64,000 bases of DNA, taken from an uncultured Caulobacteraceae bacterium (GTDB lineage: Bacteria > Pseudomonadota > Alphaproteobacteria > Caulobacterales > Caulobacteraceae). Below, piece by piece: positions 15,622 through 64,000 of this stretch (its first letter is position 1; every line of letters starts with the position of its first letter). The notes beneath the pieces are model-generated. The model was not told the origin of the DNA and made no database searches. It was given only the letters and a program-made list of their open reading frames with translations. The translations under genes and the position numbers were made by a program. Where the stretch lies: positions 8,539 to 72,538 of the forward strand of contig CAXTCO010000001.1 of the NCBI GenBank assembly GCA_964242255.1. The letters are read 5' to 3'.

Positions 15622-15956
15622 CAGCGGGCGCTCCCGATCTCGATGACGAGGTCGCCGGCGTCCAAGGACGCGGACACGTCCGGCCGTACACGCCCACAAA
15701 GGGTCAGCAGCTGATCGGTGCTCGCGTTCCCTGACCGCACGTGCACCACGCGCGGGCCGCGGCCTGATCGCGCGAAGGCGATGTAGTCGTTGTCTTTCGT
15801 GACGATCACGGCGTTCATCTGTGGGGCCGCACGAGCGATGTCGAGGTCGGGCGCGGCGCTGAGGCCGAGCGCGCTCGTGTGATCGGCCTCGAAGCTTCGT
15901 GTCCGCAGCCAGCGCACCAGGGCGAGAGGAAGGTTCTCATCGACTAGGAACTTCAC
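15621..15956 (-). CDS. PIN-like nuclease domain protein (DUF5615 / Mut7-C type), putative toxin
   Basis: 111 codons from GTG 15956. KFLVDENLP ... VIVTKDNDY pattern of DUF5615. Stop shares one base with nuoG ATG (TGATG). Confidence 0.75.
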   Translation of the reverse strand: MKFLVDENLPLALVRWLRTRSFEADHTSALGLSAAPDLDIARAAPQMNAVIVTKDNDYIAFARSGRGPRVVHVRSGNASTDQLLTLCGRVRPDVSASLDAGDLVIEIGSAR

Positions 15957-16177
15957 TCAGCCGCCAGGACGGGGTGATCGAGCTGCTCCGAGGCGTAGCG
16001 GAGCACGGCGGCGAAGTCGGCAGCTTCCAGGCTCGGGTATTCGGCAAGGATCTCATCGTGCGACATCCCGCTGGCCAGGAGATCGAGAACGTCGGTCACC
16101 CGGACTCGCAGACCTCGCACGCAGGGCCGGCCAACCAGCTTGCCGGCTTCCACGGTGATGCGGTCGGCGACCAGCAC
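15953..16177 (-). CDS. DUF433 domain protein, putative antitoxin
   Basis: GTG 16177, 5 nt after nuoF stop, 74 aa. GRPCVRGLRVRVTDVLDLLASGMSHDEILAEYPSLEAADFAAVLRYA is the DUF433 signature. Stop overlaps the PIN-like start (GTGA). Confidence 0.75.
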   Translation of the reverse strand: MLVADRITVEAGKLVGRPCVRGLRVRVTDVLDLLASGMSHDEILAEYPSLEAADFAAVLRYASEQLDHPVLAAE

Positions 16178-16182
16178 GTGGC

Positions 16183-17502
16183 CTACTCCGCCGCCAGCAG
16201 GGTCGCGCCCTGCACGTGCGGCTTGGCCACGCGGTAGCTGGCGATCCGCGCCTCCACCTCGGGGCGGAAGTGGCGGAACAGGCCCTGGATCGGCCAGGCG
16301 GCCGCGTCGCCCAGGGCGCAGATGGTGTGGCCCTCCACCTGGCTGGCGACGTCGAGCAAGGTGTCGATCTCGCCCATCTCGGCCTCGCCGCGGGCCATGC
16401 GCTCCAGCACGCGCCACATCCAGCCGGTGCCCTCGCGGCAGGGGGTGCACTGGCCGCAGCTCTCGTGCTTGTAGAAATAGGCGATGCGGGCGATGGCGCG
16501 GACCAGGTCGGTGGACTTGTCCATCACGATCACCGCCGCGGTGCCGAGGCCGCTCTTCAGCTCGCGCAGCGAGTCGAAGTCCATCAACGCGGTCTCGCAC
16601 TGCTCGGCCGGGATCATGGGCACCGACGAGCCGCCGGGGATCACCGCCTTCAGGTTGCCCCAGCCGCCGCGCACGCCGCCGCAGTGCTCCTCGAGCAGCT
16701 GCTTGAGGGGGATGCTCATGGCCTCCTCCACGTTGCAGGGCTTCTGCACGTGGCCGGAGATGCTCATCACCTTGACGCCGGTGTTGTTCGGGCGGCCGAA
16801 GCCTGCGAACCACCCCGCCCCGCGGCGCAGGATCGTGCCCACCACCGCGATCGACTCGACGTTGTTCACCGTGGTGGGGCAGCCGTAGAGGCCCGCGCCC
16901 GCCGGGAACGGCGGCTTCAGCCGCGGCTGCCCCTTCTTGCCCTCCAGTGATTCGAGCAGCGCCGTCTCCTCGCCGCAGATGTAAGCGCCGGCGCCGTGGC
17001 TGACGTAGAGGTCGAAGTCCCAGCCGTGGACGTTGCCCGGCCCGATCAGCTTGGCCTCGTAGGCCTGGGCGATGGCCGCCTCCAGCCGCTCGCGCTCCAG
17101 CACGTATTCGCCGCGGATGTAGATGTAGCAGACGTGCGCCTGCATGCTGAACGAGGCCAGCAGGCAGCCCTCGATCAGGAGGTGCGGGTCGTGCCGCATG
17201 ATCTCCCGGTCCTTGCAGGTGCCGGGCTCGCTCTCGTCGGCGTTGACCACGAGGTAGTGCGGGCGGCCCGGCTTCACCTCCTTGGGCATGAACGACCACT
17301 TCAGCCCGGTGCCGAACCCTGCGCCCCCGCGGCCGCGCAGGCCGGACGCCTTGACCTGGTCGATGATCCAGGGACCGCCGAGCGCGATCATGTCGGCGGT
17401 GGCGTTCCACGCGCCCCGCGCCTTCGCCCCCTCCAGCCCCCAGTCGTGGAAGCCGTAGAGGTTGGTGAAGATGCGGTCCTTGTCTTCGAGGATGCCGACC
17501 AT
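16183..17502 (-). CDS. nuoF: NADH-quinone oxidoreductase subunit F
   Basis: 439 aa. FMN/NADH-binding region and [12 protein letters not shown] 4Fe-4S motif. Confidence 0.95.
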
Positions 17503-17631
17503 CGGGCGCTTGGAGTCTCAGCTCTCGGGCGTGGGGCCGGCGGCGCGCGCACGCGCGGTCGCAAGGCCGGGTGATTTGACGCTCATATAGGGCCTAAGAC
17601 CCCGCGGATCGACTGAGAACCGCTTGCAATT

Positions 17632-18300
17632 TCAGGCGGTCGCGGGCGCCGGCTGAGGCCTGTTGGGCAGTTCGACCGGATGCGCGGCCGAGCCGTCGTA
17701 GAGCGAAGGGTCGGTCAGCGTGGCCGCCCCGCCCTGGGGCTCGGAGCTGTGGCGGCCGACGCGCGAGCCCGGCTGAGGCGAGCCGCCGGCGCGGAACTCG
17801 GCGATGATGTCGCCCATGTCCTCGCCGGTCAGGTCCTCGAAGTAGTAGTCGTTGATTTGCGCCATCGGCGCGTTGGCGCAGGCGCCCAGGCACTCCACCT
17901 CCTGCCAGGTGAACTTGCCATCGGCGGAGAGCCTGTCCTTCGCCCCGATGTCGCGCTTGCAGCGCTCCATCAGCTCGCCGGCGCCGCGCAGGGCGCAGGG
18001 CGTGGTGCCGCAGATCTGGATCAGCGCCGCCGAGCCCACCGGGTCGAGCTGGAACATGGTGTAGAAGGTCGCCACCTCCAGCACGCGCACAACGGGCATG
18101 CTCAGGAGTTCGGCTATCGCGCGGATGGCGGGCTCGCTGACCCATCCCTCCTGCTTCTGCACCACCCACAGGAGCGGGATGGAGGCCGACTGCTTGCGGT
18201 GCGGCGGGAACTTGGCGAGCCAGCGCTCCACCTCCCGCTGCGACTCGGGCGTGAAGGCGAAGCTCGCGGGCTGGACGGGAGCGAGGCGGCGGACGGACAT
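17632..18300 (-). CDS. nuoE: NADH-quinone oxidoreductase subunit E
   Basis: 222 aa. Thioredoxin-like 2Fe-2S cysteines (CGTTPC ... CLGAC). C-terminal low-complexity extension. Confidence 0.93.
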   Translation of the reverse strand: MSVRRLAPVQPASFAFTPESQREVERWLAKFPPHRKQSASIPLLWVVQKQEGWVSEPAIRAIAELLSMPVVRVLEVATFYTMFQLDPVGSAALIQICGTTPCALRGAGELMERCKRDIGAKDRLSADGKFTWQEVECLGACANAPMAQINDYYFEDLTGEDMGDIIAEFRAGGSPQPGSRVGRHSSEPQGGAATLTDPSLYDGSAAHPVELPNRPQPAPATA

Positions 18301-18332
18301 GTAGGCCGTTTAGCGCCCGCGGGCGCGTCGTC

Positions 18333-18752
18333 CTAGCCCCGCGGGGCGGCGAAACGACCGGTGCGTGTAGAGCTCGTCAGGAAGGCCCGCCACTCCGAGT
18401 CGGAAGCCAGCCGCAGGTCGGCGACCAGCCAGGAGGTCGGCGGCAGGCGACGCACGGCCATGCGGCCCAGCGCCACGAACAGCCCCATCCACAAGAGGCT
18501 CAGCCACAGGGCCGACCCCCAGGAGTAGTCGGCGTCCTGGAACGCGTCGAAGAAGGCCGTGCGCACGATCAGCACGCCCGCGAGCGGGATGGCGGCCAGG
18601 AGCCCCGTCGCCAGGGCGAAGCGGCGCACGCCCATGGCCCGGCGCCGACGCGGCGAAATCATCAGCTGGCCGGCCACGCTCACCGCCAGCAGGGCGGCGA
18701 ACAGGGCGAAGTGACCCTCGCTCAGCTCGGGGCGGACCCACAGTCCCGTCAT
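18333..18752 (-). CDS. Hypothetical membrane protein inserted between nuoD and nuoE
   Basis: 139-aa ORF with about four hydrophobic segments (FALFAALLAVSVAG, LLAAIPLAGVLIV, ALWLSLLWMGLFVAL). Same strand as nuo. No family recognised. Confidence 0.55.
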   Translation of the reverse strand: MTGLWVRPELSEGHFALFAALLAVSVAGQLMISPRRRRAMGVRRFALATGLLAAIPLAGVLIVRTAFFDAFQDADYSWGSALWLSLLWMGLFVALGRMAVRRLPPTSWLVADLRLASDSEWRAFLTSSTRTGRFAAPRG

Positions 18753-18847
18753 GCGCGCGGCGCTTCCGTTGTTATCGAGCCGTCATAGATAGGCTGAACG
18801 GCGGCTGACCGGAAGCCGCGGAGACGCGGCGCGTCGTCGCTCCCGCC

Positions 18848-20068
18848 CTAACGGTCGATCTCGCCGAACACGATGTCGAGCGAGCCCAGGATCGCGCTTA
18901 CGTCGGCCAGCATGTGGCCGCGGTTCATCCAGTCCATCGCCTCCAGGTGCGGGAAGCCCGGCGCGCGGATCTTGCAGCGGTAAGGTTTGTTGGAGCCGTC
19001 GCTGACCAGGTATACGCCGAACTCGCCCTTGGGCGCCTCCACGCAGGCGTAGACCTCGCCGGCGGGCACGTGGAACCCTTCGGTGTAGAGCTTGAAGTGG
19101 TGGATCAGCGCCTCCATCGAGCGCTTCATCTCGGCGCGGCGCGGCGGGGCGACCTTGCCGTCCTCCGTCAGCACGGGGCCGGGCCGCTTCTTCAGTTGGC
19201 CGAGGCACTGCTCCATGATGCGGACCGACTGGCGCATCTCCTCGACCCGGCAGAGGTAGCGGTCGTAGCAGTCGCCGTTCTTGCCGACGGGGATGTCGAA
19301 CTCCAGCTCGGCGTAGTTGTCGTAGGGCTGCGACTTGCGCAGGTCCCAGGCCACGTCCGAGCCGCGCAGCATCACGCCGGTGAAGCCCCGGCGCACGGCC
19401 TCCTCCTTCGACACGACGCCGATGTCGACGTTGCGCGCCTTGAAGATGCGGTTGCCGGTGACCAGCGTCTCGATGTCGTCCAGCTTGGCGGGGAACGCCC
19501 TGCACCAATCGACCAGGTCGTCGATCAGCGCCGGCGGCAGGTCCTGGTGCACGCCGCCAGGGCGGAAGAAGTTGGCGTGGAGACGCGCCCCGCAGGCGCG
19601 CTCGTAGAAGATCATCAGCTTCTCGCGCTCCTCGAACCCCCACAGCGGCGGGGTGAGCGCGCCCACGTCCATCGCCTGCGTGGTCACGTTGAGCAGGTGG
19701 CTGAGGATGCGGCCGATCTCGTTGTAGAGCGTGCGGATCAGCTGGCCGCGGATCGGCACGTCGACGCCGATCATCTTCTCGATGGCGAGCACGTAGGCGT
19801 GCTCCTGGTTCATCGGGGCGACGTAGTCGAGGCGGTCGAAGTAGGGGATGTTCTGAAGGTGCGTACGCGCCTCCATCAGCTTCTCGGTGCCGCGGTGCAG
19901 CAGGCCGATATGCGGATCCACCCGCTCCACGACTTCGCCGTCGAGCTCCAGCACCAGGCGCAGCACGCCGTGGGCGGCCGGGTGCTGGGGACCGAAGTTG
20001 ATGTTGAAGTGGCGGACCTGCGTCTCTTCGGGCTGCAGGGTCGCCAGACCGCCCGCGTCGTCGGCCAT
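18848..20068 (-). CDS. nuoD: NADH-quinone oxidoreductase subunit D
   Basis: ATG 20068 ([15 protein letters not shown]), 406 aa. [18 protein letters not shown] motif. Confidence 0.95.
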
Positions 20069-29822: not shown

Positions 29823-30274
29823 GGCATGGAGCTCCTGAGCTTCAGGGGAGAGGGCGCGACGCCAAGCGCACTGGCGAGGCGAGCGCGCGTCCTAAGGGCG
29901 TGGAGAGCCACACGGACGTAGCGGCGACGCACGTCCTCGAGGTCGTCGAGGGGATCGGCTAGGGGCACGCCGTCGGCCGTCATGGTGGCGCAGAACGTGA
30001 CGAGGTGACTGTCATCGACGCGGGCGTGGATCGGCGCGCCGGCGTCGTCGGTCGCTACCACCTGAGCGCGGCCCGCGTCGTCGCAGATCGATGCGGTCAA
30101 GCGCAACGTCTCTCGCCCGAAGGTCGTCAGCTCGGGAACCGGTCGAGTCTTGATCTTCACCACGACGCCCTGGAGTCGGTAGACGCGATCCTCATCGTTG
30201 AGTGGGTGCGTCACCTGGCCGGTGATGTCCTCGATGTCGGGCGCGAGCCGCGCGGCTGACACGATGTCGCTCAT
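29819..30274 (-). CDS. Hypothetical phage protein immediately downstream of fibre gene (possible fibre accessory/chaperone by position)
   Basis: 151-aa ORF. 4-nt overlap with the stop of the fibre gene. Confidence 0.6.
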   Translation of the reverse strand: MSDIVSAARLAPDIEDITGQVTHPLNDEDRVYRLQGVVVKIKTRPVPELTTFGRETLRLTASICDDAGRAQVVATDDAGAPIHARVDDSHLVTFCATMTADGVPLADPLDDLEDVRRRYVRVALHALRTRARLASALGVAPSPLKLRSSMP

Positions 30275-33200
30275 GGCACCTGCGCTCCCGTGTTGCCGCC
30301 GTAGCGCGGGCCGCCGCCGATCCCGCCGCCGCCGCCGCTTGGCGGCGTATAGGTCGGAGGCGAGTAAGTCGGAGCGCCTCCGCTCCCGCCGCTCGTGCTG
30401 GTCATCGGGGCCTGCAGCCCGATGGGAATGTAGTTATAGGCGTTGTTGACCATTGCGTCGGTAGCCGGCGGGGGTTGCAGGTCACACGCGCCAGTGCTGA
30501 GATTGTAGAAGACCCATGTTTCGCCACCGACGTTGCTGAACGTCTGACTGTTCCACGAATACTTGGTGCCGTTCGTGAGCGTGACGCTGCCTTGCGCGAC
30601 GCTGATCTGGCCGACCCCGGGCGACGACAGCGGGTAAGGCGGAGAGTACACCGCCCCCGTAGCGGTGCTCATCGAATAGGGCGCTTGGCTCCCACCCGTG
30701 AGCCGGCTCTGCGTGGCGAGGGCTCCCTGTCCGCTGATGGCGCCGGCCACGTTGGCGCTTGTCACGTCCGCGCCAGCCTGGCGGGGCCAGTAGTTCGTGA
30801 TGCTCTGGCCGTTGTATTGGTTAAAGAGGTAATCCGCCTTGATCGCCGGCCCGCCGTTGATAACGCCGGACATGAGATCGCGGAAGACCGCAGGCACATT
30901 CGTCAGGCCGTTATACCAATCTGCGAAGCTCTGCGTCGCCAGAGCACCTTGCCCACTGATACCCGAGGCGGTGTGTGAGCTCGTGATGTCCGCCCCCGAC
31001 TGCGCCGGCTGCAAGGCGCTCACCGTCTGTCCGTTCGGATACTGCACCTGACCCGTCGGCAAACTCCCCGCCGTCTGCGTCGCCAAGTTGACGGTGGAAG
31101 ACGTCGCAAGCGCGCTCTGGCCTGTGATCGAGGCGGCGACGTTCGCCCCCGTCTCGTTGGCGAGCCTGGACGACGGCCCCGAGCTGTAGGGAGGCGCGGA
31201 GGTCTGTCCGGGCGACACCTTCGCCATGAACGGCTGGGCGGCGAAGGAGCTGACGTTCCCGGTGCAGCCGGCGGGCACGATGACCCGGACCACCATGAAG
31301 GCGTGGAAGACGCCGCCCGGGATCGTCACGAAGCCGCCGACCCGGCTGTAGTGGCCCTGGATGTCGCCGTTCGAGCTGTAGGGGTCGTTGCCCGTGCCGC
31401 CCGAGCCCGCCACCGCCGACCACACCAGGTTGCCGAAGGGGTCGATGCCGTAGACGATCACCTGACAGCTGCTCGCGCCGTTGGCGTAGGCGCACATGGC
31501 GGAGGCGTAGTAGGTCTCGCCGCCGTTCACCTGGACGGCGTGCTTGTTGACGTGGGTGGAGCTGGTGTCGTTGTTCAGGAGCGTGCTGAACACGTCCACG
31601 TAGCCGCCGGCGGTCAGGCTCTTCCCGCTGGGCGCGTAGACCTGCGCTACGTTGTAGTAGCTGTTCAGGTTCTGGCGGACGAAGCCGCCGCTGAAGCTGT
31701 CGTAGCCCGTCCCGAAGTTCGCGGCAGGGTAGAGGAAGTCGCTGTCCAGGATCTGGTTGCCGCCGCTGGTGGCGACGTTGGCGTTGGCGACCTGGGTGGG
31801 CGTGAGCGAGGTGTTCGCCGCCAGCGCGCTCTGGCCGCTGACCGCCGAGGCGATGTTCACGGCCGTCTGGTCCGCCGCGCGGTCCGGCGGCCCGGGGACG
31901 TAGTTGGGCGGCGAGACCTGGTCGCTGGAGACCTTCGTCAGCATCACCTGGCCGCAGTAGCCCTGGCCGCCCGCGTTGGCGGGGATGTCCACCCGCACCA
32001 GCAGCGTCACATACCAGGCGCCGCTCCCGACGGTGTAGAAGCCGCCCACGCGGCTGTAGTGGCCCTGGAGGTCGCCGTTGCCGGCGTACTGGTCGTTCGC
32101 GACGCCGCCGGTGCCCAGCACCACCTCGCCGACGATCGTTCCGTTGTAGCTCCAGAAGACGGCGTGGACTTCCATGTTCGTCGCGCCGCTCGTGAACGAG
32201 CACATCGCCGAGCCGTAGATCCGGTCGCCCGCGTTCACCTGGAGCGCGTAGCGCTGCAGGTTGTTGGCCGAGTTGCCCGGCAGCGTGTGCAGGACGTCGA
32301 ACACGCCGCCCGTCGAGGAGGCCTGCGACGTGTAGGCGTAGGCGTAGGGCTGGATCCCGTAGGCGTAGTTGCGCTGGATCGAGCCGCCCGTTCCGCCGAG
32401 GCTGTCGTAGCCCGGGCCGAAGCAGGTCAGGCCCTGCCTGAACTCGCTGTCCACCACCGCATTCCCGGCGCTGGTCTGGACATTCGAGTTGAGGACCTGG
32501 GCGACCGTCTGCGTCGCCGTGGCGAGCGCGCCTTGGCCCGCCACGGAGGCGGAGACGGCGTTCGCCGTCTTGTCCGCCGCCACGGTCGCCGGCTGCAGGA
32601 GCTGCGCCGTCTGACCGTTCGTGTAGCTGACCGAGCCGGCCGGCAGCGCGCCAGAGACCTGCGAGCTCAGGCTGACGCTGCCGGTCGTCTGGGTGCCGAG
32701 GTTGACGCTGCTGAGGGTCGCGAGCGCGCCCTGGCCCGAGATCGCTGAGGCGACGTTGGAGCCGGTCTGGTCGGCGGTCCGGTCGGTGGCACCCACCTGG
32801 TAGGGCGGCGCGGCGGTCTGGCCCGCGGCCACCTTGGCGAGGAACGGGCGCGCCGCGGCGGCCTGGCAGTCGCCCGTGCAGCCGGCCGGCACGTTCACCC
32901 GGGCGAGGATCGTGGCGAAGCGGGCGCTGATCGGCACGGTCACGAAGCCGCCGACCCTCGTAAACCACCCGTCGATGTCGCCGTTCAGGCCGTAGAAGTT
33001 CGGGTCGGCGAGGAAGCCGCCGGTGGCGATCGCCGACGAGGGCAGCGCCGCGCCGTTGACGTCCCACCACTCCACCCAGACGGAGACGCCCGTGGCCCCG
33101 TGGCCGTAGAGGGCGTGGACCGAGGCGTAGACGGTGTCGCCGGGGGTGACGACCGCACCGTAGCGGAGCAGGTAGCCGAGACCCTGGTCCTGGCCAGGGT

Positions 33201-36200
33201 TCGTCTGGAAGATGTCGAAGACCTGCGCCGCGGCGGGCGATCCCGCGCCGCCGGGCAGCTTCGCCTGGATGTAGTTGCCGTAGCCGCCGCTGTTGGCGGA
33301 GCGCAACGGGGTGACCGTGGTGGTGGAGTAGCCCGGCCCGTAGGCGAAGCCGTTCCGGATCATGCCGCTGTCGACGATCAGGTTCGAGCCGAGCGCCACG
33401 TTCGCGTTCAGCACGGCGGCGACCGTGGTTGGCGTGGTGGCCAGCGGGCCCTGGCCGGCGAGGGACGCCGCCGTGTTCAGCGAGGTGACGTCGGCGCCCG
33501 CCTGGCCCGGCTGCAGGTTCTGGACCGTGATGCCGCCGGCGTAGGTCACCGAGCCCGCCGGCAGCGAGCCGGTCACCTGCGAGGTCAGGCTGACCGAGCT
33601 CGCCGTGGCGAGCGCGCCCTGGCCGGCGATCGCCGACGCCACGTTGGTGGACGTCTGGTCCGCGTTCGGGACGCCGACGCCCGGCGTCGCAGCGGCCAGC
33701 TCCGTCGCCCCGGCCTGCGCGATCCTGAGCATGGGCGCCTGGATCGTCAGCGACGCGGGACCTGCCCCGCTGGTGAACGCGATCACGTCGAGGGTGGCGT
33801 AAGCGGCGTTCGCCGGGGCGACGGTGAAGCCGCCCGGCCGGATCATGGCCGCGATGCCCCCGGCCGAGTTCGAGAAGGCGGAGAAGTCGGTGATAAACGG
33901 TGCGATCTCTTGCGGAACGATCGACGAGCCGTTCTTGTCCCAGAAGTAGACCTCAGCGTTCACGCGCGAGACGTTGGCGCAGACCGCGTAGGCGCTGGCC
34001 TCGATCTTGTCGCCGGGCTTGCACGGCAGGGCGTAGGACCGGACTTCCTGCTCGTTGGCTGCAATCGCATGGCCGCCGTAGCCTTGACCGATCGCGAACT
34101 CCTTGCCGGCCGCGGGCGTGCCGCTGGTGGCGCGCTGCAGCGCCCCCTTGCCGTTGAGCAGCACGCGCTGCGCCGCGCCGCACGAGTAGGTCTCGTCGTA
34201 GTTCTGGCACCAGAAGGCGCTGACGAACTGGAAGTCGGTGTCGATGAGCGCGTTGCCGCCCGTCGCCGCCGCCAGGTGCACGCCGTCGACGATCTGCTCT
34301 TCCTGCTGGATCGTCAGGTCGCCCGTGACGATCGGTGAGGCGTCGGTGCCGAGCTCGAGCCTGTCTCCGGGGATGCCCCGCACTGAGACGTAGCGGACGC
34401 CGACGACGAAGCCCGCCTGCGCCGGCAGCCCGGTGAGCTGCGTCTGCACGGCGACGTCGTACTGCAGGTCGATCGGCACGGCCTGCGACCACACCGTCGA
34501 TCCCGGGAGCCGGTAGTCGATCAGCGCCCGCGAGACGTTGGGATTGGTGGGCGTCCCCGTGACCAGGATCACTGGCGCTGTGGTGCCGTCGCCGCCGGGC
34601 AGCTCGCCGCCGATCGCCAGCCAGTCGGCCTCGAGCGGGGCCGGGATGTTGAAGATGTCGATCCCGGTCAGCGCCGGGATGGCTGGCGGGCTCGCCGTCT
34701 CGCCGAGGGCGAAGGCGTGCTTCCCGTCCGTCTCGGAGCGCAGAGTCAGCGTGCAGACGAAGGTGGACGGGTCGACCGTCCGGCTCAGGATCAAGCACTT
34801 CTGGTTGTTCAGCCCGTATTCGGGCTCGTTGACCGTGATGCAGTCGCCCGGCCGGTAGCCCATCCAGCGCGGCTTGCAGGGCAGCGTGATCGGTCCGAAC
34901 TCGCGCCCGTTCTCGATGTCGTAGCGCGCCAGCGTCGCCGCCTGGTCGGCCGACTGGCAGAGCGTGTATTCGACCTCCTTGGAGCGCTGGCCGCCGTCGT
35001 GTGCGAAGTAGGCCGTGACCTGGATCGGCGCGGCGGTCGGGACGATGTTCCAGCCCTGCGCCTCCTCGCGGTAGCGCGGCCAGATGGTGTTCGGCGCGGC
35101 CCGCGCGGACTGGATCGCCGCGATCGCCACGTCGCCGATCACGTCCGCTCCGGTCAGGGTGTCGAGGCTGACCTTCGGCGCATCGACCAGGCACGAGATC
35201 TTCGCGCCGAGCGGGATGGGCTGGCCGGAGCCGGCGTTCAGGATGGCGCGCAGCACGTCGCGCTTTCCGTCGGTCGAGTAGATCACGCCGCCGCAGGTCC
35301 AGCCGTGGCTGTCGGCGACGTTGGCGCCCTCGACGAAGGCCGCGACGTCGATGGCCGCCACGGGGGCATGCAGCCCGACCGTCTTCCGGCCGTTCGCGGT
35401 CCGGCCGATGCACCAGGTCAGGCCATGGATGTAGGGGTTCTGGCTGTAGGCCCAGGTCGTCTCGTCGCCGGCGCGCTGCGGCCCGGAGCCGCCGGGGTAG
35501 GTGCTGTCGAGCCGCGGGTCGTAGGCGCTGACGCCCTCGACGACGACCAGCGGCTTGACCTCGCCCGCCGGATACTTGGCGGTGTCGTACTCCATGCTCA
35601 TGATGGTGTGCGACAGGCCAGAGAGCAGGCAGCTCGCGGTCCAGGTGGACGGGATGCCCGAGTGGTTGGCCGGGGTGTCCTTCGACCCCGTGTTCGTGAA
35701 GGTGATGTGCTGGCCGGGCTGGGGCCCGAGGCTCGACTTCCACCACAGGCGGTTCTGGTAGAACGACGTCGAGCCCGGGCCCGTCACCTGCGTGTTGACC
35801 GCGTGCGCCTGGGTCGTCGCGCTCTTCAGCGAGAACTCGGTCCCGACCGAGTAGACGGTGTCGATCGTCAGCGTCTCACCGCCGACGGTGATGGACTGGC
35901 CGCCGCCAAAGTTCTGAACGGAGGCGACGGGCAGCACCGTCGCGCCGGCTGGGACCGCCTGGGAAAGCGACGTCGTCGGCGAGCCCGCGCCCGCGCCCTC
36001 CCCGCCGTCGGCCGTGAAGCTCACCGCGACGTCGTTCGCGGTGAACCCGGAGACGGACTTCACGGGCCCGGCGCACGACAGCACCGTGGTGACCAGCTCG
36101 TACTTGTTGTTGTCGCCCGAAACGTCCTTGAGGACGATCGAGCCGGACGTTCCGGTTCGCCCGATGAGGTAGGGGACCGGCGCCGTCGGGTCGGCCTGCC

Positions 36201-36456
36201 AGTCGATCTGCGTGCCGGCGGCCGTCTGGCCCACTTTGGGCGCGGTCAGGACGGTGGCCACCTCGAGCGCACCGATCGACAGCAGCGCCGGCGTGAGCGC
36301 CATCACCGCGCCCTCGATCGCCAGCTGGCCGAGCACGCCCACGCCGACCGCCGACGCTGCGCCGGCAGCGATCGCGCCGGCGGCCGCGCCGACCGTCGCG
36401 ACGGCGGTGGAGATCGCCCCCACGACGGCGGCGGCGGCGGCGGCGACCATGGGCAT
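30271..36456 (-). CDS. Host-specificity / tail fibre megaprotein (RcGTA g15-like N-terminal two fifths plus four tandem beta-sandwich-like modules)
   Basis: 2061-aa ORF in the position after the peptidase gene. Four paralogous ~190-aa modules. Eight copies of the A(I/V)(A/S)GQ(G/S)ALA(T/A) linker motif. Gly-rich C-terminus. Confidence 0.85.
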   Translation of the reverse strand: MPMVAAAAAAVVGAISTAVATVGAAAGAIAAGAASAVGVGVLGQLAIEGAVMALTPALLSIGALEVATVLTAPKVGQTAAGTQIDWQADPTAPVPYLIGRTGTSGSIVLKDVSGDNNKYELVTTVLSCAGPVKSVSGFTANDVAVSFTADGGEGAGAGSPTTSLSQAVPAGATVLPVASVQNFGGGQSITVGGETLTIDTVYSVGTEFSLKSATTQAHAVNTQVTGPGSTSFYQNRLWWKSSLGPQPGQHITFTNTGSKDTPANHSGIPSTWTASCLLSGLSHTIMSMEYDTAKYPAGEVKPLVVVEGVSAYDPRLDSTYPGGSGPQRAGDETTWAYSQNPYIHGLTWCIGRTANGRKTVGLHAPVAAIDVAAFVEGANVADSHGWTCGGVIYSTDGKRDVLRAILNAGSGQPIPLGAKISCLVDAPKVSLDTLTGADVIGDVAIAAIQSARAAPNTIWPRYREEAQGWNIVPTAAPIQVTAYFAHDGGQRSKEVEYTLCQSADQAATLARYDIENGREFGPITLPCKPRWMGYRPGDCITVNEPEYGLNNQKCLILSRTVDPSTFVCTLTLRSETDGKHAFALGETASPPAIPALTGIDIFNIPAPLEADWLAIGGELPGGDGTTAPVILVTGTPTNPNVSRALIDYRLPGSTVWSQAVPIDLQYDVAVQTQLTGLPAQAGFVVGVRYVSVRGIPGDRLELGTDASPIVTGDLTIQQEEQIVDGVHLAAATGGNALIDTDFQFVSAFWCQNYDETYSCGAAQRVLLNGKGALQRATSGTPAAGKEFAIGQGYGGHAIAANEQEVRSYALPCKPGDKIEASAYAVCANVSRVNAEVYFWDKNGSSIVPQEIAPFITDFSAFSNSAGGIAAMIRPGGFTVAPANAAYATLDVIAFTSGAGPASLTIQAPMLRIAQAGATELAAATPGVGVPNADQTSTNVASAIAGQGALATASSVSLTSQVTGSLPAGSVTYAGGITVQNLQPGQAGADVTSLNTAASLAGQGPLATTPTTVAAVLNANVALGSNLIVDSGMIRNGFAYGPGYSTTTVTPLRSANSGGYGNYIQAKLPGGAGSPAAAQVFDIFQTNPGQDQGLGYLLRYGAVVTPGDTVYASVHALYGHGATGVSVWVEWWDVNGAALPSSAIATGGFLADPNFYGLNGDIDGWFTRVGGFVTVPISARFATILARVNVPAGCTGDCQAAAARPFLAKVAAGQTAAPPYQVGATDRTADQTGSNVASAISGQGALATLSSVNLGTQTTGSVSLSSQVSGALPAGSVSYTNGQTAQLLQPATVAADKTANAVSASVAGQGALATATQTVAQVLNSNVQTSAGNAVVDSEFRQGLTCFGPGYDSLGGTGGSIQRNYAYGIQPYAYAYTSQASSTGGVFDVLHTLPGNSANNLQRYALQVNAGDRIYGSAMCSFTSGATNMEVHAVFWSYNGTIVGEVVLGTGGVANDQYAGNGDLQGHYSRVGGFYTVGSGAWYVTLLVRVDIPANAGGQGYCGQVMLTKVSSDQVSPPNYVPGPPDRAADQTAVNIASAVSGQSALAANTSLTPTQVANANVATSGGNQILDSDFLYPAANFGTGYDSFSGGFVRQNLNSYYNVAQVYAPSGKSLTAGGYVDVFSTLLNNDTSSTHVNKHAVQVNGGETYYASAMCAYANGASSCQVIVYGIDPFGNLVWSAVAGSGGTGNDPYSSNGDIQGHYSRVGGFVTIPGGVFHAFMVVRVIVPAGCTGNVSSFAAQPFMAKVSPGQTSAPPYSSGPSSRLANETGANVAASITGQSALATSSTVNLATQTAGSLPTGQVQYPNGQTVSALQPAQSGADITSSHTASGISGQGALATQSFADWYNGLTNVPAVFRDLMSGVINGGPAIKADYLFNQYNGQSITNYWPRQAGADVTSANVAGAISGQGALATQSRLTGGSQAPYSMSTATGAVYSPPYPLSSPGVGQISVAQGSVTLTNGTKYSWNSQTFSNVGGETWVFYNLSTGACDLQPPPATDAMVNNAYNYIPIGLQAPMTSTSGGSGGAPTYSPPTYTPPSGGGGGIGGGPRYGGNTGAQVP

Positions 36457-36460
36457 GCGC

Positions 36461-36880
36461 TCAGGTCCTCCAGGCGGTCAGGAAGCGACGCGGCGCGAGC
36501 ACGCGCGCCTGGTCCGTGTGGAAGCCGAGCACCCGGCCGTTACCGAGGGCTACGCACAGGGCCGGTGCGCCGTCCTCGGCGGGCAGCGCCACCAAGTCGA
36601 GCGGCAGGGTGGCCGCCGGCGGGATGCGGTCGAGGCCCTGGCCGTCGAGGGCCTGCTCGAGATCCGCGTAGCCCAGCCGGCGGAGCGCGCGCACCGACCC
36701 CGCCGGCGAGGTGTAGCGCTGGGCGTCCTCGAGCTGCGAGGAGCGGCCGCGCTGCAGCAGGGCGGCGTGCGCCAGGCGGGCGCAGTCGCGCTCCCCCCAA
36801 CGGAAGGGCGCCGCGATCCAATCGGCCAGCAGGGCCTGCGCGCCCGCGACGCGCCGCTCGAGGTCGGTCGGCTCGCGCAT
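36461..36880 (-). CDS. Phage cell-wall peptidase, NlpC/P60-like (RcGTA g14 position)
   Basis: ATG 36880 (MREPTDLERRV), 139 aa. FRWGERDCARLAH candidate catalytic Cys. Call is by position and motif. Confidence 0.55.
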   Translation of the reverse strand: MREPTDLERRVAGAQALLADWIAAPFRWGERDCARLAHAALLQRGRSSQLEDAQRYTSPAGSVRALRRLGYADLEQALDGQGLDRIPPAATLPLDLVALPAEDGAPALCVALGNGRVLGFHTDQARVLAPRRFLTAWRT

Positions 36881-58607: not shown

Positions 58608-58711
58608 ATGTGCCTCGCCCACCCGGGCCGGGGCCAACCGCGAGACTTCGCGGGGGCGACTCTCCTCCGGCCTAACCCCGCCTCGGGTGGGCGCCCTTCG
58701 CGGAGCGCTCC

Positions 58712-58999
58712 ATGGCCGACGGCACCACCTTTCAGGCTGACTTCGAGGCGAGCCCCGAGGTCATGACGGCCGCCGCCCAGGGGCGGCTCAAGAGCTTCCT
58801 GGAGCGGATCGAGAAGCTGGAGGAGGACCGCGCGGCGGTCGGCGAGGACCTGAAGGAGGTCTACGCCGAGGCCAAGGGCGAGGGCTTCGACACCAAGACG
58901 ATCCGCGCCGTCGTCCGCCTGCGCAAGCAGGACAAGGTGAAGCGCGACGAGGCGCAGGCGCTCCTCGACCTCTACCTCTCCGCGATCGGCGGCCTGTGA
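58712..58999 (+). CDS. gapR: GapR-like nucleoid-associated protein (DUF2312 / UPF0335)
   Basis: 95 aa. LKSFLERIEKLEEDRAAVGEDLKEVYAEAKGEGFDTKTIRAVVRLRKQDKVKRDEAQALLDLYLSAIG closely parallels Caulobacter GapR as I recall it. Confidence 0.8.
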   Translation: MADGTTFQADFEASPEVMTAAAQGRLKSFLERIEKLEEDRAAVGEDLKEVYAEAKGEGFDTKTIRAVVRLRKQDKVKRDEAQALLDLYLSAIGGL

Positions 59000-60285: not shown

Positions 60286-60494
60286 GGCGCGCCGCCTGGA
60301 CGGTGGTAGAGCGCAACCGCCTCGCCCGCGTGGTCGCGCGCGGCATGTTCGGTCGGCACCCGCCGCCGCCCGGGCTGGAGCCGCAGGGGATCGACTTCGA
60401 CGTCGTGCGCGCCGTTGTCGCCGCCGGCTACCGCCCGCCTCAGCGCCGGCACCCGCGCCGCACAGACCCGCGGCGCCTGGGAGCGGTGTCGTGA
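60282..60494 (+). CDS. Hypothetical phage protein
   Basis: GTG 60282 (GTGA overlap), 70 aa. Confidence 0.45.
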   Translation: MRRAAWTVVERNRLARVVARGMFGRHPPPPGLEPQGIDFDVVRAVVAAGYRPPQRRHPRRTDPRRLGAVS

Positions 60495-60823
60495 TCGCCG
60501 TCCCCGGTGAGGCGATGGCCTGGGCCCGGGAGTGCCTCGCCGCCGGCGACGCGCCGGAGGAGCTGGCGATGGCGCTCGGCCTCAGCGAGGAGCAGCTGCT
60601 CTGCGCTGCGGGCGTCCACACGCCGATGACGCCGCGCCAGCGCGAGGCCGCGTCCCTGCGCGCCGCCGGCCTCACAGACGCCGAGGCCGCGGGGCGGATG
60701 GAGCGCTGCACGGCGGCCGCCGTCTCCAACCTGCTCAGGACGGCGCGCTCGAACGGCTACGCCATCGCCCTGCGGTCGCCCGGGCGTCAGCCCGACATCG
60801 AAGTCCTGGGAGCCGGCCGGTGA
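60491..60823 (+). CDS. LuxR/sigma-70 region 4-type HTH protein
   Basis: GTG 60491 (GTGA overlap), 110 aa. TPRQREAASLRAAGLTDAEAAGRMERCTAAAVSNLLRTARSNG. Confidence 0.55.
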   Translation: MIAVPGEAMAWARECLAAGDAPEELAMALGLSEEQLLCAAGVHTPMTPRQREAASLRAAGLTDAEAAGRMERCTAAAVSNLLRTARSNGYAIALRSPGRQPDIEVLGAGR

Positions 60824-61230
60824 ACGCGGCCGCCCGCCTCGCCCCGGTCGGGTCCGGCCGTGCCCATGCTCTGGCCAACCACCTCCGTCCCTGGCGCAAG
60901 CGCACCCGCGCCAACGACATCACCATCGAGGCCGAGCCGTTCGTCGCCGGCGGTCGGCCCCGGGTGGTGGCCCGCGTGCCGCGCACCGCCGACACTTATG
61001 CCGACCACGCCCTGGCCGACACGATCGTCGCCTCACTCGAGATCCAGGAGGCCGTCCGCGCGCTGCTGCGCGACGGCGCGGTCTCGCGCGATGGCGAGTT
61101 CACCTACCTGCCGCCCCCGCGCGCCGGCGCGGACGCGATCGCGCGGCTCCAGAAGCTCCTCGAGGCTGCCCCCCCCCCCCTGCTGGGGCGGTGCCTCGTC
61201 TGCAAGGTGAGGATCGCCGATGACGCGTGA
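60820..61230 (+). CDS. Hypothetical phage protein containing an in-frame C12 tract
   Basis: GTG 60820 (GTGA overlap), 136 aa. The C12 run encodes AAPPPL. C-terminal CLVC. Confidence 0.5.
   Translation: MNAAARLAPVGSGRAHALANHLRPWRKRTRANDITIEAEPFVAGGRPRVVARVPRTADTYADHALADTIVASLEIQEAVRALLRDGAVSRDGEFTYLPPPRAGADAIARLQKLLEAAPPPLLGRCLVCKVRIADDA
61169..61180 (+). repeat. Poly(C) tract, 12 nt
   Basis: Counted directly in the sequence. Confidence 0.95.
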
Positions 61231-61367
61231 CGACGAGCTGGTGCTCGCCTGGACCGACGCCGGCTGGAACCCCGACAAGATCGACCGCGCGCTCCTGCGC
61301 GGCCGCGGCTGGGCGCGCCGGCGGCTCGCGCGCCTGCGCCCCGCTCCAGAGCCGGCGGAGGCCGACG
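61220..61367 (+). pseudogene. Coding segment with start but no nearby stop (frame-disrupted gene or frameshift junction)
   Basis: ATG 61220. About 49 codons of strong third-position GC (MTRDDELVLAWTDAGWNPDKIDRALLRGRGWARRRLARLRPAPEPAEADD). Codon bias then collapses in this frame although it stays open to 61843. Confidence 0.4.
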
Positions 61368-61571
61368 ATGCTCTACGACTGGGAGGCGAAGCGCTCGGGC
61401 GCGAACATCACGATCTCGGGGAAGGACGAGACGGGGCAGGTCCGCGCGATCACGGGCGTCGAGAGGGTGGCGCTGACGGCGAACGGGCTGGTGGCCGTGA
61501 CGCTCGCGCGCAAGTTCCACCCGCTGGCGACGACGTCCGGTCCGCCGCAGGCGACGTCGAAGGCGGCCTGA
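61368..61571 (+). CDS. Small hypothetical phage protein
   Basis: ATG 61368, 67 aa (MLYDWEAKRSGANITISGKDETGQVRAITGVERVALTANGLVAVTLARKFHPL..). Good codon bias. +1 frame relative to the preceding segment. Confidence 0.5.
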   Translation: MLYDWEAKRSGANITISGKDETGQVRAITGVERVALTANGLVAVTLARKFHPLATTSGPPQATSKAA

Positions 61572-61581
61572 CGGCCGCTCG

Positions 61582-61623
61582 GCCTTCGCCCCCCCCCCCC
61601 CCTCACATGGAGGGGGCGAAGGC
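61582..61623 (+). repeat. Poly(C) tract of 14 nt (61589-61602) embedded in a 12-bp GC hairpin
   Basis: GCCTTCGCCCCC 61582-61593 pairs with GGGGGCGAAGGC 61612-61623. The loop contains the remaining Cs and ATG 61607. Confidence 0.9.
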
Positions 61624-61749
61624 GCCGCGGCGGCGATCCCGCCCGGCTGCAGCAGCACGAGGTCGAGCCCGGTCGCGGCGTCCCGAACGATTGGGATCGG
61701 GCCCTCTTCGAGCCCTGGGCCGACCGCAAGGCTCGTCGCCTCGCGCAGC

Positions 61750-61917
61750 GTGGGGGAGCTCGGCCGTGACCTCCCCGCGCGCGCCGTCCCGTCCGCCAAG
61801 CTGCGCTTCGCTCGTTGGTTCATCGACGCGAGGTGGTCGGTGAACGCGACCGCCGCCCTCTTCGACCTCGCGCCGGCGGACCTGGCCGCCGCCCTCTCCC
61901 TGCAGGAGGCGGCGTGA
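61750..61917 (+). CDS. Small hypothetical protein (start uncertain)
   Basis: Strong codon bias from ~61768 to the stop at 61917 (..LRFARWFIDARWSVNATAALFDLAPADLAAALSLQEAA). GTG 61750 is the only in-frame start. Confidence 0.35.
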   Translation: MGELGRDLPARAVPSAKLRFARWFIDARWSVNATAALFDLAPADLAAALSLQEAA

Positions 61918-62117
61918 CCTGCCGCCTCGCCCCACGAACCGGAGACGCCGTTGTGACCCCGCTCGCCTCGCCGCGCTGCGCCCCGCCCACGCCCCGCTCC
62001 GCCTGGCTCTCCGCCTGGCTGACCAGTCTCAGCGCACGCCCCGCGGCGCACGTGGGCGTCTTCTTCGGCGTGGGCATGGCCGCGGCGCTGCTGCTGATCG
62101 GCGGAGGGCTGCTCTGA
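61914..62117 (+). CDS. Small membrane protein
   Basis: GTG 61914 (GTGA overlap), 67 aa. C-terminal TM VGVFFGVGMAAALLLIGGGLL. Confidence 0.45.
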   Translation: MTCRLAPRTGDAVVTPLASPRCAPPTPRSAWLSAWLTSLSARPAAHVGVFFGVGMAAALLLIGGGLL

Positions 62118-62434
62118 TGTTCGATCCGCTTTCAGGTCAGGCCGCCGACCAGCTCGATATCGAGGAGTTGGCGCGCACAGCCTACGCCAAGCGCCTGCGG
62201 CTCACGACCAGCAGCGGCCTCAGCGGGACAGCTCACCTGGGTGGCGATCCCGACAAGTTCGTGCACAGCCTTCTCCGCCTCGCCGCCATCGGTCAGGCGT
62301 TCGTCGGCGCCTCGGCCGCAGAGCCTGGCCTGACGCTTCGCAGCGTCCGTGACCGTGTGGCCCGCATCGGCGACGAGCGCGTGGTGGCGCTACTGGAAGG
62401 CCGGTCCGTCGTCGCCGCGCGGGAGGCGCGCTGA
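62117..62434 (+). CDS. Hypothetical phage protein
   Basis: 105-aa ORF. Start shares one base with the upstream stop. Confidence 0.55.
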   Translation: MFDPLSGQAADQLDIEELARTAYAKRLRLTTSSGLSGTAHLGGDPDKFVHSLLRLAAIGQAFVGASAAEPGLTLRSVRDRVARIGDERVVALLEGRSVVAAREAR

Positions 62435-62997
62435 TGCGCACCGGCCGGCCCGACCTCGACGCCATGCTCCGCGTGGCGAGCATCCCCGCCGAGGAGCCCT
62501 GCTTCATCCTCCGCGGGCAGGACGACTGCGCGGTGGAGGCGGTGCGCTTCTACGCCGAGCTGGTGCTGGCGCGCGGCGGCTCGGCCGCCATGGCCGAGGC
62601 CGCCCTGCAGCAGGCCGACGCGATGTCGTGCTGGCCGACGAAGAAGCTCCCCGATGTTGATCTGCCCGAGCACCAGCGCCGGCTGCTCGAGTACCAGCAC
62701 AGCCGCCGTGGAGACGTTCGCTCGGGCGACCTCCCCGTTGCCCATGCCTATGACCAGGGGCGCATCGCGGGCGTGGCGCAGGAGCGGCGCGGAGCCGCCA
62801 GCGTGCTCCTCCTCGAGCACGAGGCGCTCGCCGCCGGGCGGCGCGCCTACATGGCGCATCGCGCGGGCGTCCAGGCCGGCAAGTCCAGAGTCGGGAAGCT
62901 CGCCACCTGGGAGGAGCTTCCCGAAGTCGCGCAAGCGAAGTGGGCGGACACCGCCCGCGCGACTTGGCCGCAGCTCGCGCAGGACGCCGCAGCATGA
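62434..62997 (+). CDS. Hypothetical phage protein
   Basis: 187-aa ORF, coupled at both ends. Confidence 0.6.
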   Translation: MRTGRPDLDAMLRVASIPAEEPCFILRGQDDCAVEAVRFYAELVLARGGSAAMAEAALQQADAMSCWPTKKLPDVDLPEHQRRLLEYQHSRRGDVRSGDLPVAHAYDQGRIAGVAQERRGAASVLLLEHEALAAGRRAYMAHRAGVQAGKSRVGKLATWEELPEVAQAKWADTARATWPQLAQDAAA

Positions 62998-63587
62998 TGC
63001 TCCGCGCCTACCCGCTCGACTGGCCGCCGTCGCAACCGCGGACCGAGCGCCTGAACATCGGCGCCCCGTACGCGTGCAAGGACACGCTGGGCACCGCCTC
63101 GGATCGGATCGACCGCGCACTGGACCTCTCCGGCTTCGGCGCCGTGGTGCTGTCCACCGACATCGTCACCCGGGGCCGCCAGTACGCGACCGAGAAGATG
63201 GCCAGCGACCATGGCGCCGCGCTCGCCTTCGAGTTCCAGGGGCGGCGCTACCACGTGGGCCAGGACGCGTGGGCCCGGCCCCTCCACAACGTCTGGAGCC
63301 TCGCGCTGATGGCCGAGGGACTGCGCCAGACGGTGCGCCACGCCGGAGACGCCCTGTTCGCCCGCATGATCGCGGGCTTCGCGGCGCTCCCCCCACCTCC
63401 GGCCGGCGGCGTCCTCGCGCCGATCGCGGCGCACCAGGTGCTCGGCGTCGCTCCGGACGCGCCTCGGGAGGTGATCGAGGCGGCCTACCGTGCGCTCGCG
63501 CGCAAGCACCACCCCGACCAGGGCGGCTCGGCCGCTGGCATGGCCGCCCTCAACGCCGCCCGCGACCAGCTGCTCCGAGAGGCCTGA
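62994..63587 (+). CDS. J-domain (DnaJ-like) fusion protein
   Basis: ATG 62994 (ATGA overlap), 197 aa. Unrecognised ~135-aa N-domain plus C-terminal HQVLGVAPDAPREVIEAAYRALARKHHPDQGG with the HPD tripeptide. Confidence 0.75.
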   Translation: MMLRAYPLDWPPSQPRTERLNIGAPYACKDTLGTASDRIDRALDLSGFGAVVLSTDIVTRGRQYATEKMASDHGAALAFEFQGRRYHVGQDAWARPLHNVWSLALMAEGLRQTVRHAGDALFARMIAGFAALPPPPAGGVLAPIAAHQVLGVAPDAPREVIEAAYRALARKHHPDQGGSAAGMAALNAARDQLLREA

Positions 63588-63883
63588 TGCCCACCGCCCG
63601 CCCGAAGCCGCAGTTCACCCCGCGCCAGGTCGACCAGCTGGCGCAGCTGCTCGCCGCCGGCGCCCTGAGCCACGAGGACGCCAAGCACCAGTTCGATGCC
63701 GGGATGAGCGGCTGCAGCCCGCTGGTGCTGGGCAAGCTGCGCGACATGGACTTGGCCGACAGCCGCGTCATGCGCCCGCGCGGCGGTTCGCAGGTCACGG
63801 CCTACTGGCTGACGCCGGCGGGCGCGCGGACCGCGCGCAGGCTCGCCGGATCACCCCCCCCCCCCCGGAGGGCGGTTCGATGA
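63587..63883 (+). CDS. Hypothetical phage protein, apparently truncated after a C13 tract
   Basis: 98 aa ending GSPPPPRRAVR. The frame reached by removing one C has strong codon bias and ends at 63932 in a GTGA overlap with the next gene. Confidence 0.5.
   Translation: MPTARPKPQFTPRQVDQLAQLLAAGALSHEDAKHQFDAGMSGCSPLVLGKLRDMDLADSRVMRPRGGSQVTAYWLTPAGARTARRLAGSPPPPRRAVR
63854..63866 (+). repeat. Poly(C) tract, 13 nt
   Basis: Counted directly in the sequence. Confidence 0.95.
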
Positions 63884-63928
63884 CGCGCCCTGGCCCCAGC
63901 TCGAGCTCTTCCCGGAGCTGAACGCTGC

Positions 63929-64000
63929 GTGACGTCCGTCCTCGCCCCGAGTCCACCAGCCGACCTCGCGCCCGCCGCGGTCCCGGCCGGCGCGTGGCGG
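63929..64000 (+). CDS. 5' end of a further phage gene running off the window
   Basis: GTG 63929, then 23 codons with strong third-position GC (VTSVLAPSPPADLAPAAVPAGAWR). Open at the window edge. Confidence 0.4.
   Translation, partial: MTSVLAPSPPADLAPAAVPAGAWR

Follow-up and report, generated by a model that had tools for sequence, protein, structure and literature searches.

A 13-nucleotide cytosine tract at the end of an early prophage gene from an uncultured Caulobacteraceae bacterium: a candidate switch between two protein isoforms

What does it mean when a small phage gene runs into an unbroken series of 13 cytosines and stops shortly behind it, and a conserved peptide lies undamaged in another frame just downstream? 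The question is raised by gene A, which belongs to the early operon of a prophage and lies near the end of a 64,000-nucleotide stretch of DNA (contig CAXTCO010000001.1, positions 8,539 to 72,538; hereafter the window) from an uncultured member of the Caulobacteraceae. An initial annotation of the window regarded the 13-C tract as truncating a coding sequence that one C fewer would restore. Here, we argue that the tract is probably a slippage-prone, hypermutable poly-C sequence that was sequenced in its short-isoform state, and the evidence supports a choice between two complete isoforms of protein A, as opposed to a choice between an active protein and a broken one.

The tract, the tail and their relatives

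The two readings described by the initial annotation can both be reproduced from the DNA. The C13 tract and the limits of the coding sequence are as it reported (Table 1), and with 13 C gene A ends in LAGSPPPPRRAVR (also written RRLAGSPPPPRRAVR), with its stop at 63881-63883. Translation with 12 C yields an ending in LAGSPPPPGGRFDDAPWPQLELFPELNAA (also written PPPPGGRFDDAPWPQLELFPELNAA or GSPPPPGGRFDDAPWPQLELFPELNAA), which includes the 21-codon tail and a TGA at 63930-63932 that overlaps the GTG 63929 of the next gene, gene B, as GTGA. Tracts of 11, 12, 13 and 14 C produce three different C-termini, the 11-C and 14-C readings sharing the third frame, and gene B lies in the same frame as the 13-C reading of gene A.

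The tail frame is moderately coding-like. Over its 21 codons, the codon-usage log-likelihood is +4.7 bits, compared to -24.1 in the frame that is read as sequenced and -2.5 in the second, which places the tail inside the range of true frames (21-codon reference windows have a mean of +11.5 and a 5th percentile of 0.6) and far above off-frames (mean about -20, 95th percentile -7 to -10). Third-position GC had been described as strong in this frame; it is indeed the highest of the three at 0.82, but only moderately so, given that the other two frames reach 0.76 and 0.48. The tail frame contains no in-frame ATG, GTG or TTG start and it ends in a stop, so the tail can only be a C-terminal continuation of gene A. 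For the same reasons, and because its frame differs from that of gene B, we rejected the possibilities that it is an N-terminal extension of gene B or an independent open reading frame (ORF).

A lichen metagenome (ERR5055691) is the sole public run that contains the locus. A Logan contig, L001, represents an independent assembly of this run at a word depth of about 90x, and over 60400-64000 it has 0 differences from the window, with poly-C tracts of 12, 14 and 13 C in both.

When the 12-C reading was used as the query, an exhaustive HMMER search returned 58 relatives, compared to 35 from a word-indexed profile search. Nearly all of them are 80-100 aa in length and end 8-15 residues past an invariant YWLT motif, which is the point where the tract begins in the window. 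Five tail-less homologues (L002, L157, L158, L159 and L160) were checked for hidden tails, and none was found behind them in any frame; in these loci, the core is followed at once by the end of the gene, which overlaps its neighbour by 1 or 4 nt. Since about 60 distant relatives naturally end just before the tract, the 13-C product is best regarded as a complete short protein and not a broken one, and to call it truncated was too strong. The alignment of both alternative C-termini against homologues, which had been put forward as a check, goes against the refuting condition named with it, since the downstream frame is conserved in the closest relatives; the distant ones end before the tract without a tail.

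Among about 15 billion proteins, tail-bearing loci number only three, namely the window, L056 and L057. In L056 (protein P0008), the tract is CCCACCCCCCCC, which is 12 nt long and interrupted, and the tail follows in frame as SPTPPGGRFDDDWPQLELFA and a stop; the protein ends in SRSPTPPGGRFDDDWPQLELFA, and the tail stop forms a GTGA with the GTG of a GcrA-like gene. L057 is a syntenic 9-kb early operon with an uninterrupted C11 tract. Its protein P0010, as called, ends in APPPIAEVGSMTAIGSSSSSSRE, the counterpart of the third frame of the window, and with C12 it would end in APPPHRGGRFDDRDWIQLELFP (also written PPPHRGGRFDDRDWIQLELFP), again with GTGA onto GcrA. Gene A is coupled directly to the GcrA-like gene in both L056 and L057. 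A tract of 12 nt sets the tail in frame at each of the three loci; the window deviates by +1 and L057 by -1, and L056 is in frame. In this respect, the earlier designation of 12 C as the in-frame ON state and of the sequenced state as tail-less has held up.

The pattern GGRFDD..W.QLELF is kept in the only other two tail-bearing loci, and the three-locus alignment contains 12 invariant tail residues (G94, G95, R96, F97, D98, D99, W102, Q104, L105, E106, L107 and F108), compared to 53-69% identity in the core. The nucleotide differences within the tail fall at third positions of the tail frame (GGG/GGT, CCC/CCG and CTC/CTG). Because the tail exceeds the core in conservation and its differences are synonymous, it was under purifying selection until the recent past in the lineage of the window. 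A scan of IMG/VR with gene A found one relative, the tail-less L160. The degenerate tail DNA pattern TTCGAYGAY-N6-15-CARCTNGARCTNTTY had 0 matches in IMG/VR and 99 in JGI metagenomes, none of them with the family core or a C tract; these 99 were rejected as relatives and are either chance matches or members of an unrelated RFDD..QLELF family.

Poly-C tracts and the signals behind them

Within the window, which has a G+C content of 71.5%, a first-order Markov model predicts 0.0175 runs of at least 12 C per strand, versus the 3 that are present. These begin at 61169 (C12), 61589 (C14) and 63854 (C13), all on the plus (sense) strand of the early operon and within 2.7 kb. There are no C or G runs of 8-11 nt anywhere in the 64-kb window, and its longest background run is G7. 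The all-C spelling of proline is not a by-product of codon bias, since CCC accounts for 40% of Pro codons (CCG for 51%) and the other Pro runs use mixed codons, as seen in 6/6 of the other PPP or PPPP runs in confident genes, including CCC CCA CCT CCG directly 5' of gene A. Across 161 kb of other high-GC loci, three related phage loci account for 9 of the 12 C or G runs of at least 9 nt, and each of these 9 is a run of C on the sense strand.

The homologous tracts of the window and L057 differ in length at all three positions (13/11, 12/9 and 14/12, respectively). The C12 tract of the window lies in gene V and keeps its tail in frame (Table 1), and the gene V tail frame scores +3.3 bits. The L057 counterpart is a C9 at 730-738, which leaves the conserved tail out of frame; C10 would restore an ending in PPPVLGRCLVCKVRVGDDA. 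After the C12 tract of the window, neither off-frame stays open beyond 13 codons (P = 0.026), and one of the two closes as ATGA on the ATG 61220 of the next gene. The C14 tract has a C12 counterpart at the same position in L057. IMG/VR scans for gene V and for segment Z, which abuts the C14 tract, returned no match.

Directly behind the C13 tract, the tail opens with GGA GG(G/T) CGG TTC GAT GAC in all three loci, and several of these codons are rare in this phage: GGA, GGT and GGG represent 4.7%, 5.5% and 14% of Gly codons, respectively, and GAT represents 7.3% of Asp codons. Together, the rare codons spell GGAGG-N8-ATGA, in which both the ATG and the TGA depend upon the GAT. This TGA is the stop of the 13-C frame, and without it gene A would fuse with gene B. 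The 13-codon ORF that begins at the ATG is present in 3/3 loci, each time ending within 8 nt of the start of the next gene. Furthermore, both off-frames after the C13 tract end within 17 codons (P = 0.038 versus random in-frame positions in this phage, for which the later stop has a median of 152 codons). These features suggest that all three frames bring ribosomes to the next start, such that the state of the tract alters the tail of protein A and leaves downstream expression largely intact. The conserved GGAGG-N8-ATGA and the 13-codon ORF may accordingly serve as a relay that passes ribosomes to the next gene in every tract state.

Tight translational coupling is the general rule along the operon, although the claim that a 4-nt overlap is used at almost every junction was overstated: the called junctions of L001 comprise seven 4-nt overlaps and five 1-nt overlaps. 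The ATG 63587 of gene A itself has a 1-nt overlap with the preceding stop (TGATG). Aside from one 2-nt spacer, the gene chain of L001 contains only three real gaps, and these are located at or 3' of poly-C tracts.

Table 1. Positions in the window of gene A, its C13 tract, the features behind it and the sister tracts (nt, nucleotides; aa, amino acids)
Feature	Position	Strand	Description
Gene A as sequenced	63587..63883	+	98 aa; predicted winged-helix core at about 11-88, then PPPP and RRAVR before the stop; from translation
C13 homopolymer	63854..63866	+	Encodes the PPPP linker; sets the frame
Tail segment	63867..63932	+	In frame only at a tract of 12 (or 15) nt: GGRFDDAPWPQLELFPELNAA, then stop
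Shine-Dalgarno (SD)-like GGAGG	63867..63871	+	Formed by the rare Gly codons GGA GGG; kept in L001, L056 and L057
13-codon ORF, third frame	63880..63921	+	MTRPGPSSSSSRS, then stop; ATG overlaps the stop of the 13-C frame as ATGA; ends 8 nt before GTG 63929
Gene B start	63929..64000	+	105 aa in L001; gene cut by the window end; from gene calls and translations
Sister tract C12 in gene V (60820-61230)	61169..61180	+	In frame: PPP, then tail LLGRCLVCKVRIADDA and stop
Sister tract C14	61589..61602	+	18 nt 3' of the TGA of gene Y (61368-61571); abuts segment Z (61603-61767)

Protein A and the prophage that encodes it

The AlphaFold2 model of protein A (28-sequence alignment) has a mean predicted local distance difference test score (pLDDT) of 86, with values >90 for residues 11-88, and its topology is H-H-H-beta-beta-H. 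In a Foldseek search of the PDB, the top 50/50 matches are winged helix-turn-helix (wHTH) DNA-binding proteins (TubR, PadR-like and MarR-like), with probabilities of 0.94-1.0 and E-values of only 3e-3 to 5e-2. The best match is TubR (4asn_A), with a template modelling (TM) score of 0.72 normalised to the target. As modelled, therefore, the gene A product is shown to be a small winged-helix DNA-binding protein. It shares with TubR, PadR-like and MarR-like proteins the H-H-H-beta-beta wing plus a C-terminal helix, and it is distinct from the TubR, PadR and MarR families in having no significant sequence match, which leaves it outside of these curated families. Protein A has no Pfam or PHROG match, its sequence profile has no significant match in the PDB (E of 0.17 or worse), and a PadR match appears in 1/28 family members (E = 0.034).

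Behind the PPPP linker, tail residues 89-114 have a pLDDT of about 58-62, indicative of a flexible, accessible segment, and they are acidic. The QLELF within it (in the context GGRFDDAPWPQLELFPE) is invariant in the three loci and fits the clamp-binding consensus Q-phi-x-L-F or QL[S/D]LF, for which the chance expectation is 0.0005 per 21 residues, as estimated from a six-frame translation of the window. QLELF from Bacillus subtilis Pol I binds clamps in vitro. Based upon this motif, we propose that the long isoform may dock on the host sliding clamp (DnaN) and that the short isoform would not. Proteins with beta-clamp-binding motifs carry such pentapeptides at the flexible termini of polymerases, repair factors and clamp-targeting proteins of mobile elements. 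The putative motif of protein A resembles these in that it is an exact QLELF and follows a linker, within a C-terminal region that is acidic and flexible. It differs in its carrier, a phage wHTH protein of about 90 aa without a Pfam or PHROG match, as well as in the GRFDD..W block, which lies outside of the known motif.

The first 26 kb or so of the window are host chromosome (the nuo operon, RNase J and ProRS), and the prophage begins at about 27 kb. Its minus strand encodes the tape measure, capsid, portal and large terminase, and the structural genes seem intact. The early operon runs along the plus strand from about 57 kb and includes a GapR homologue (58676-58999, Pfam E = 6e-30), a J-domain protein (phrog_9210) and gene A, followed beyond the window end by the 105-aa gene, DUF1153, GcrA and an integrase. 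The presence of GapR and GcrA in the prophage points to an alphaproteobacterial host. DUF1153 and GcrA lie at L001 5275-6047, and together with GapR they are prophage-encoded homologues of alphaproteobacterial chromosome and cell-cycle factors. Within the run, the prophage has a word depth of about 95x (93-100x), versus about 125-170x for host core genes, which makes it an integrated element present in part of the population and not one undergoing lytic replication. The host region (window 1-20000) is recovered as many short contigs with strain variants, and the prophage (40000-64000) assembles cleanly at its lower depth, which together imply several coexisting host strains, of which only some carry the prophage.

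No similar phage record was found by blastn of 62000-64000 against INPHARED. Likewise, no syntenic prophage was found in genome contigs or IMG/VR by way of the neighbouring DnaJ-domain protein, as all matches were either distant (at most 38% identity over the full length) or restricted to the J-domain. This neighbour, located directly 5' of gene A at 62994-63587, is the phrog_9210 protein, and its C-terminal J-domain contains an HPD motif (..KHHPDQGG..); its full-length relatives are mostly from Actinobacteria, with 31-38% identity. In the tail module, a 2068-aa ORF on the minus strand (30271-36477) has no Pfam match at E <= 1e-5 and may be a host-specificity or tail-fibre protein.

Several observations concern the genes around the sister tracts. 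The gene V tail LLGRCLVCKVRIADDA contains a CxxC pair. Gene X (61220-61367, with a frame that extends to 61843; about 795-1373 in L057) encodes an HTH-like protein of about 50 aa that starts with MTRDDELVLAWTDAGW, and its coding score is +20 bits over the 49 codons up to the ATG of gene Y. There is no stop at this ATG in the window or in L057, and the frame continues across gene Y and the C14 tract; in L057, it ends exactly where the next called gene begins, and gene X was skipped by the gene callers in both loci. Segment Z (L057 counterpart region 1156-1360) is conserved coding sequence, (L/V)TWRGRRRRG.. followed by EPGRGVPNDWDRALFEPWA, with no in-frame ATG, GTG or TTG. Its homologues elsewhere are stand-alone genes of 55-75 aa with their own ATG. 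In both the window and L057, segment Z is in the frame of gene Y, with spacers of 31 and 34 nt, respectively, and the TGA of gene Y has the context TGA-C. The ATG nearest to segment Z (61607) lies one base out of its frame at both loci, with a G5 run behind it in the window and a G4 run in L057. Candidate routes for the expression of segment Z here include readthrough of the TGA, a frame shift or another route. Additional C runs were encountered as a C9 at L001 5485-5493 (about 64459-64467, past the window end), where the phage GcrA gene begins, between the GTGA-coupled GTG and an ATG in the same frame; as a C10 at L057 6344-6353, in the GcrA linker; and as a C12 at L157 4905-4916, inside a 377-aa gene of a more distant relative.

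Explanations for the tract and their implications

A real slippage-prone tract is favoured because the assemblies agree, tract lengths vary in a relative, the all-CCC spelling is unexplained by codon bias and rare-codon signals lie behind the tract. Gene A of this phage subgroup would then consist of the core, a Pro linker written as an unbroken C run, and a flexible tail of 15-21 residues (GGRFDD..W.QLELF), and a single C gained or lost during DNA replication would move the tail into or out of frame. A tract of 12 nt would yield the long form, whose stop overlaps the next start (GTGA), 13 nt, the sequenced length, would yield the tail-less short form ending in RRAVR, and 11 or 14 nt would yield a third tail that is probably meaningless. 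High-frequency length changes within populations would represent phase variation, and the tail of the long form may bind to DnaN. Homopolymer phase variation is a textbook bacterial bet-hedging device, and the locus exhibits the attributes of a simple sequence repeat (SSR) contingency locus, as the C13 tract is located inside a coding sequence and is far longer than any background run, a unit change in its length switches the product, and its length is polymorphic at conserved positions between relatives (three loci). A fixed position with varying length, several tracts per genome and an interrupted, stabilised allele are together the usual signature of such loci. Moreover, the offsets of the uninterrupted tracts, +1 in the window and -1 in L057, fit undirected length drift as opposed to directional recoding.

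Sequencing error must be weighed most directly against this, since a homopolymer miscall would mean that the true tract has 12 C and the long form is simply encoded, as would likewise apply to the C11 and C9 tracts of L057. Such an error would agree with the in-frame length of 12 nt in all three loci, with both broken L057 tracts being exactly one C short, with the error-prone nature of long G/C homopolymers on every platform and with tract lengths having been read from contigs. However, two assemblies give 13 C at about 90x and agree without a difference over 3.6 kb that includes all three tracts, within the same assembly the frames of the C12 and C14 tracts are the expected ones, and short-read data would not usually contain a consensus error at a C9 tract, as needed for L057. 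Through amplification stutter, tracts lose length more often than they gain it, which also makes a +1 consensus by miscall unlikely. All told, we judge a miscall to be unlikely. An artefact of another type, poly-G joins arising from two-colour chemistry, was rejected on the reasoning that the assembly k-mers exceed the tracts in length and that the flanks on either side lie in the same conserved genes.

If the DNA were instead stably 13 C, the tail might still be produced by recoding, through slippage of RNA polymerase or +1 slippage of the ribosome (at CCC-C, during a poly-Pro stall that depends on EF-P). The sequence CCC-C is well known to favour +1 frameshifts, a 13-nt homopolymer lets tRNA-Pro re-pair cognately in any register, and the frame break has left the tail both undamaged and conserved. 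Realignment is also permitted once a homopolymer exceeds the 9-bp RNA:DNA hybrid, and at 13 nt the run is at least as long as the hybrid. Yet the relatives would require +1 (window), -1 (L057) and no shift at all (L056), so there is no conserved directional signal, and a programmed ribosomal frameshift of fixed direction was rejected for this reason. Other features are similarly unfavourable: searches for a stimulatory structure, an Rfam element, a terminator or a hairpin signal found none, with RNA elements, promoters and terminators in L001 all yielding nothing above background; the tract is followed in the 0 frame by CGG, a common codon (28% of Arg) and not a slow one; and the SD-like GGAGG is located 3' of the tract, not 5'. 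Transcriptional slippage in particular is disfavoured, since the run is C and not A/T, and slippage insertions have been reported as 100% in A/T homopolymer runs, with G/C runs concluded not to be prone (PMC5574713). Moreover, the change required in the window is a deletion, and insertions are the main outcome of homopolymer slippage. Recoding thus seems to us distinctly improbable. The remaining scenario, a plain inactivating frameshift, would entail a one-off loss of the tail without any switching, the tract only encoding a Pro linker. Most of the family is tail-less, so tail loss may cost little, the early operon is presumably silent in the lysogen, and the prophage depth implies its presence in only part of the population. 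Against such decay, the 21 tail codons are undamaged with every invariant residue present, the structural genes seem intact, the same type of break occurs at two L057 tracts, and conservation extends to the spelling of the linker in C alone and to the stop and restart signals formed by rare codons. We therefore consider simple inactivation very unlikely.

Replication slippage as the source of a two-isoform switch has weaknesses of its own. The evidence base is thin, as there are only three tail-bearing loci, with lengths taken at the contig level. One of these loci, L056, is a 654-bp contig with about 1.3x coverage, and the lengths in the window come from assembled contigs of a single run, which drop minor variants. 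Both out-of-frame tracts of L057 are one C short and could be the result of systematic homopolymer under-calling, which makes L057 alone weaker evidence than it appears. It may also be that Pro linkers just tolerate slippage-driven CCC expansion and that the +/-1 states are transient deleterious mutants; any adaptive value of switching is presumed. Lastly, the clamp-binding proposal depends upon a motif of five residues.

The closest parallels to a slippage-prone tract in gene A are the SSR contingency loci, which comprise poly-G/C tracts in genes of Campylobacter, Neisseria, Haemophilus and Bordetella as well as in receptor-binding protein genes of Campylobacter phages. As in these loci, a long G/C homopolymer lies in a coding sequence where +/-1 nt alters the frame, the tract position is conserved with varying lengths, there are several tracts per genome, and the tract is interrupted in one relative. 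There are also clear distinctions. Whereas the known tracts lie in surface or receptor-binding genes, in which switching is established, the present ones lie in early or regulatory genes of a temperate phage from Alphaproteobacteria, for which we infer it. The tract is located at the 3' end, where it would swap a short C-terminal tail instead of switching the protein off, and conserved stop and restart signals in the off-frames would allow translation to continue downstream. The dnaX tau/gamma proteins, the phage tail chaperones G/GT and the IS transposases present a different parallel, since they likewise start from a slippery homopolymer and yield two products, one short and one long, with different C-termini. 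In those systems, however, the arrangement is conserved out of frame, with a fixed direction and usually at A/T-rich sites, whereas the relatives of gene A are in frame, +1 or -1, and the tract is poly-C.

A broader scheme is possible, though we regard it as speculative. One group of temperate alphaproteobacterial phages may carry a small "phasome" of poly-C on the sense strand of the early operon, in which each tract would lie in a Pro linker before a C-terminal module, and replication slippage would toggle these effector tails combinatorially. One such tail would be a docking peptide for the host sliding clamp, borne by a DNA-binding protein encoded just 5' of the phage GcrA. The GGAGG-N8-ATGA signals and the relay mini-ORF would maintain translation of the downstream genes in every frame, and bet-hedging would thus operate in regulatory genes and not in receptor-binding genes.

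A demonstrated case of poly-G phase variation is on record for receptor-binding genes of phages (Sorensen et al. 2021, Cell Rep 35:109214, as cited in PMC11868660 and PMC10877375), and within the literature cited here, homopolymer phase variation in phages has to date been shown only for the receptor-binding proteins of Campylobacter phages. The mapping of phase variation across phage phylogenies has been urged in a review (PMC11868660). In the present case, the targets of the device seem to be early, regulatory genes in a temperate phage whose hosts are environmental Alphaproteobacteria, and its effect would be to switch a docking peptide as opposed to turning a protein on or off. If this is true, individual lysogens or virions would differ in the ability of a phage DNA-binding protein to engage the host replisome, and a small protein family without a Pfam or PHROG match would gain a testable role. 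It would also serve as a warning to annotators that "frameshifted" poly-C genes in high-GC phages can be meaningful states and not errors.

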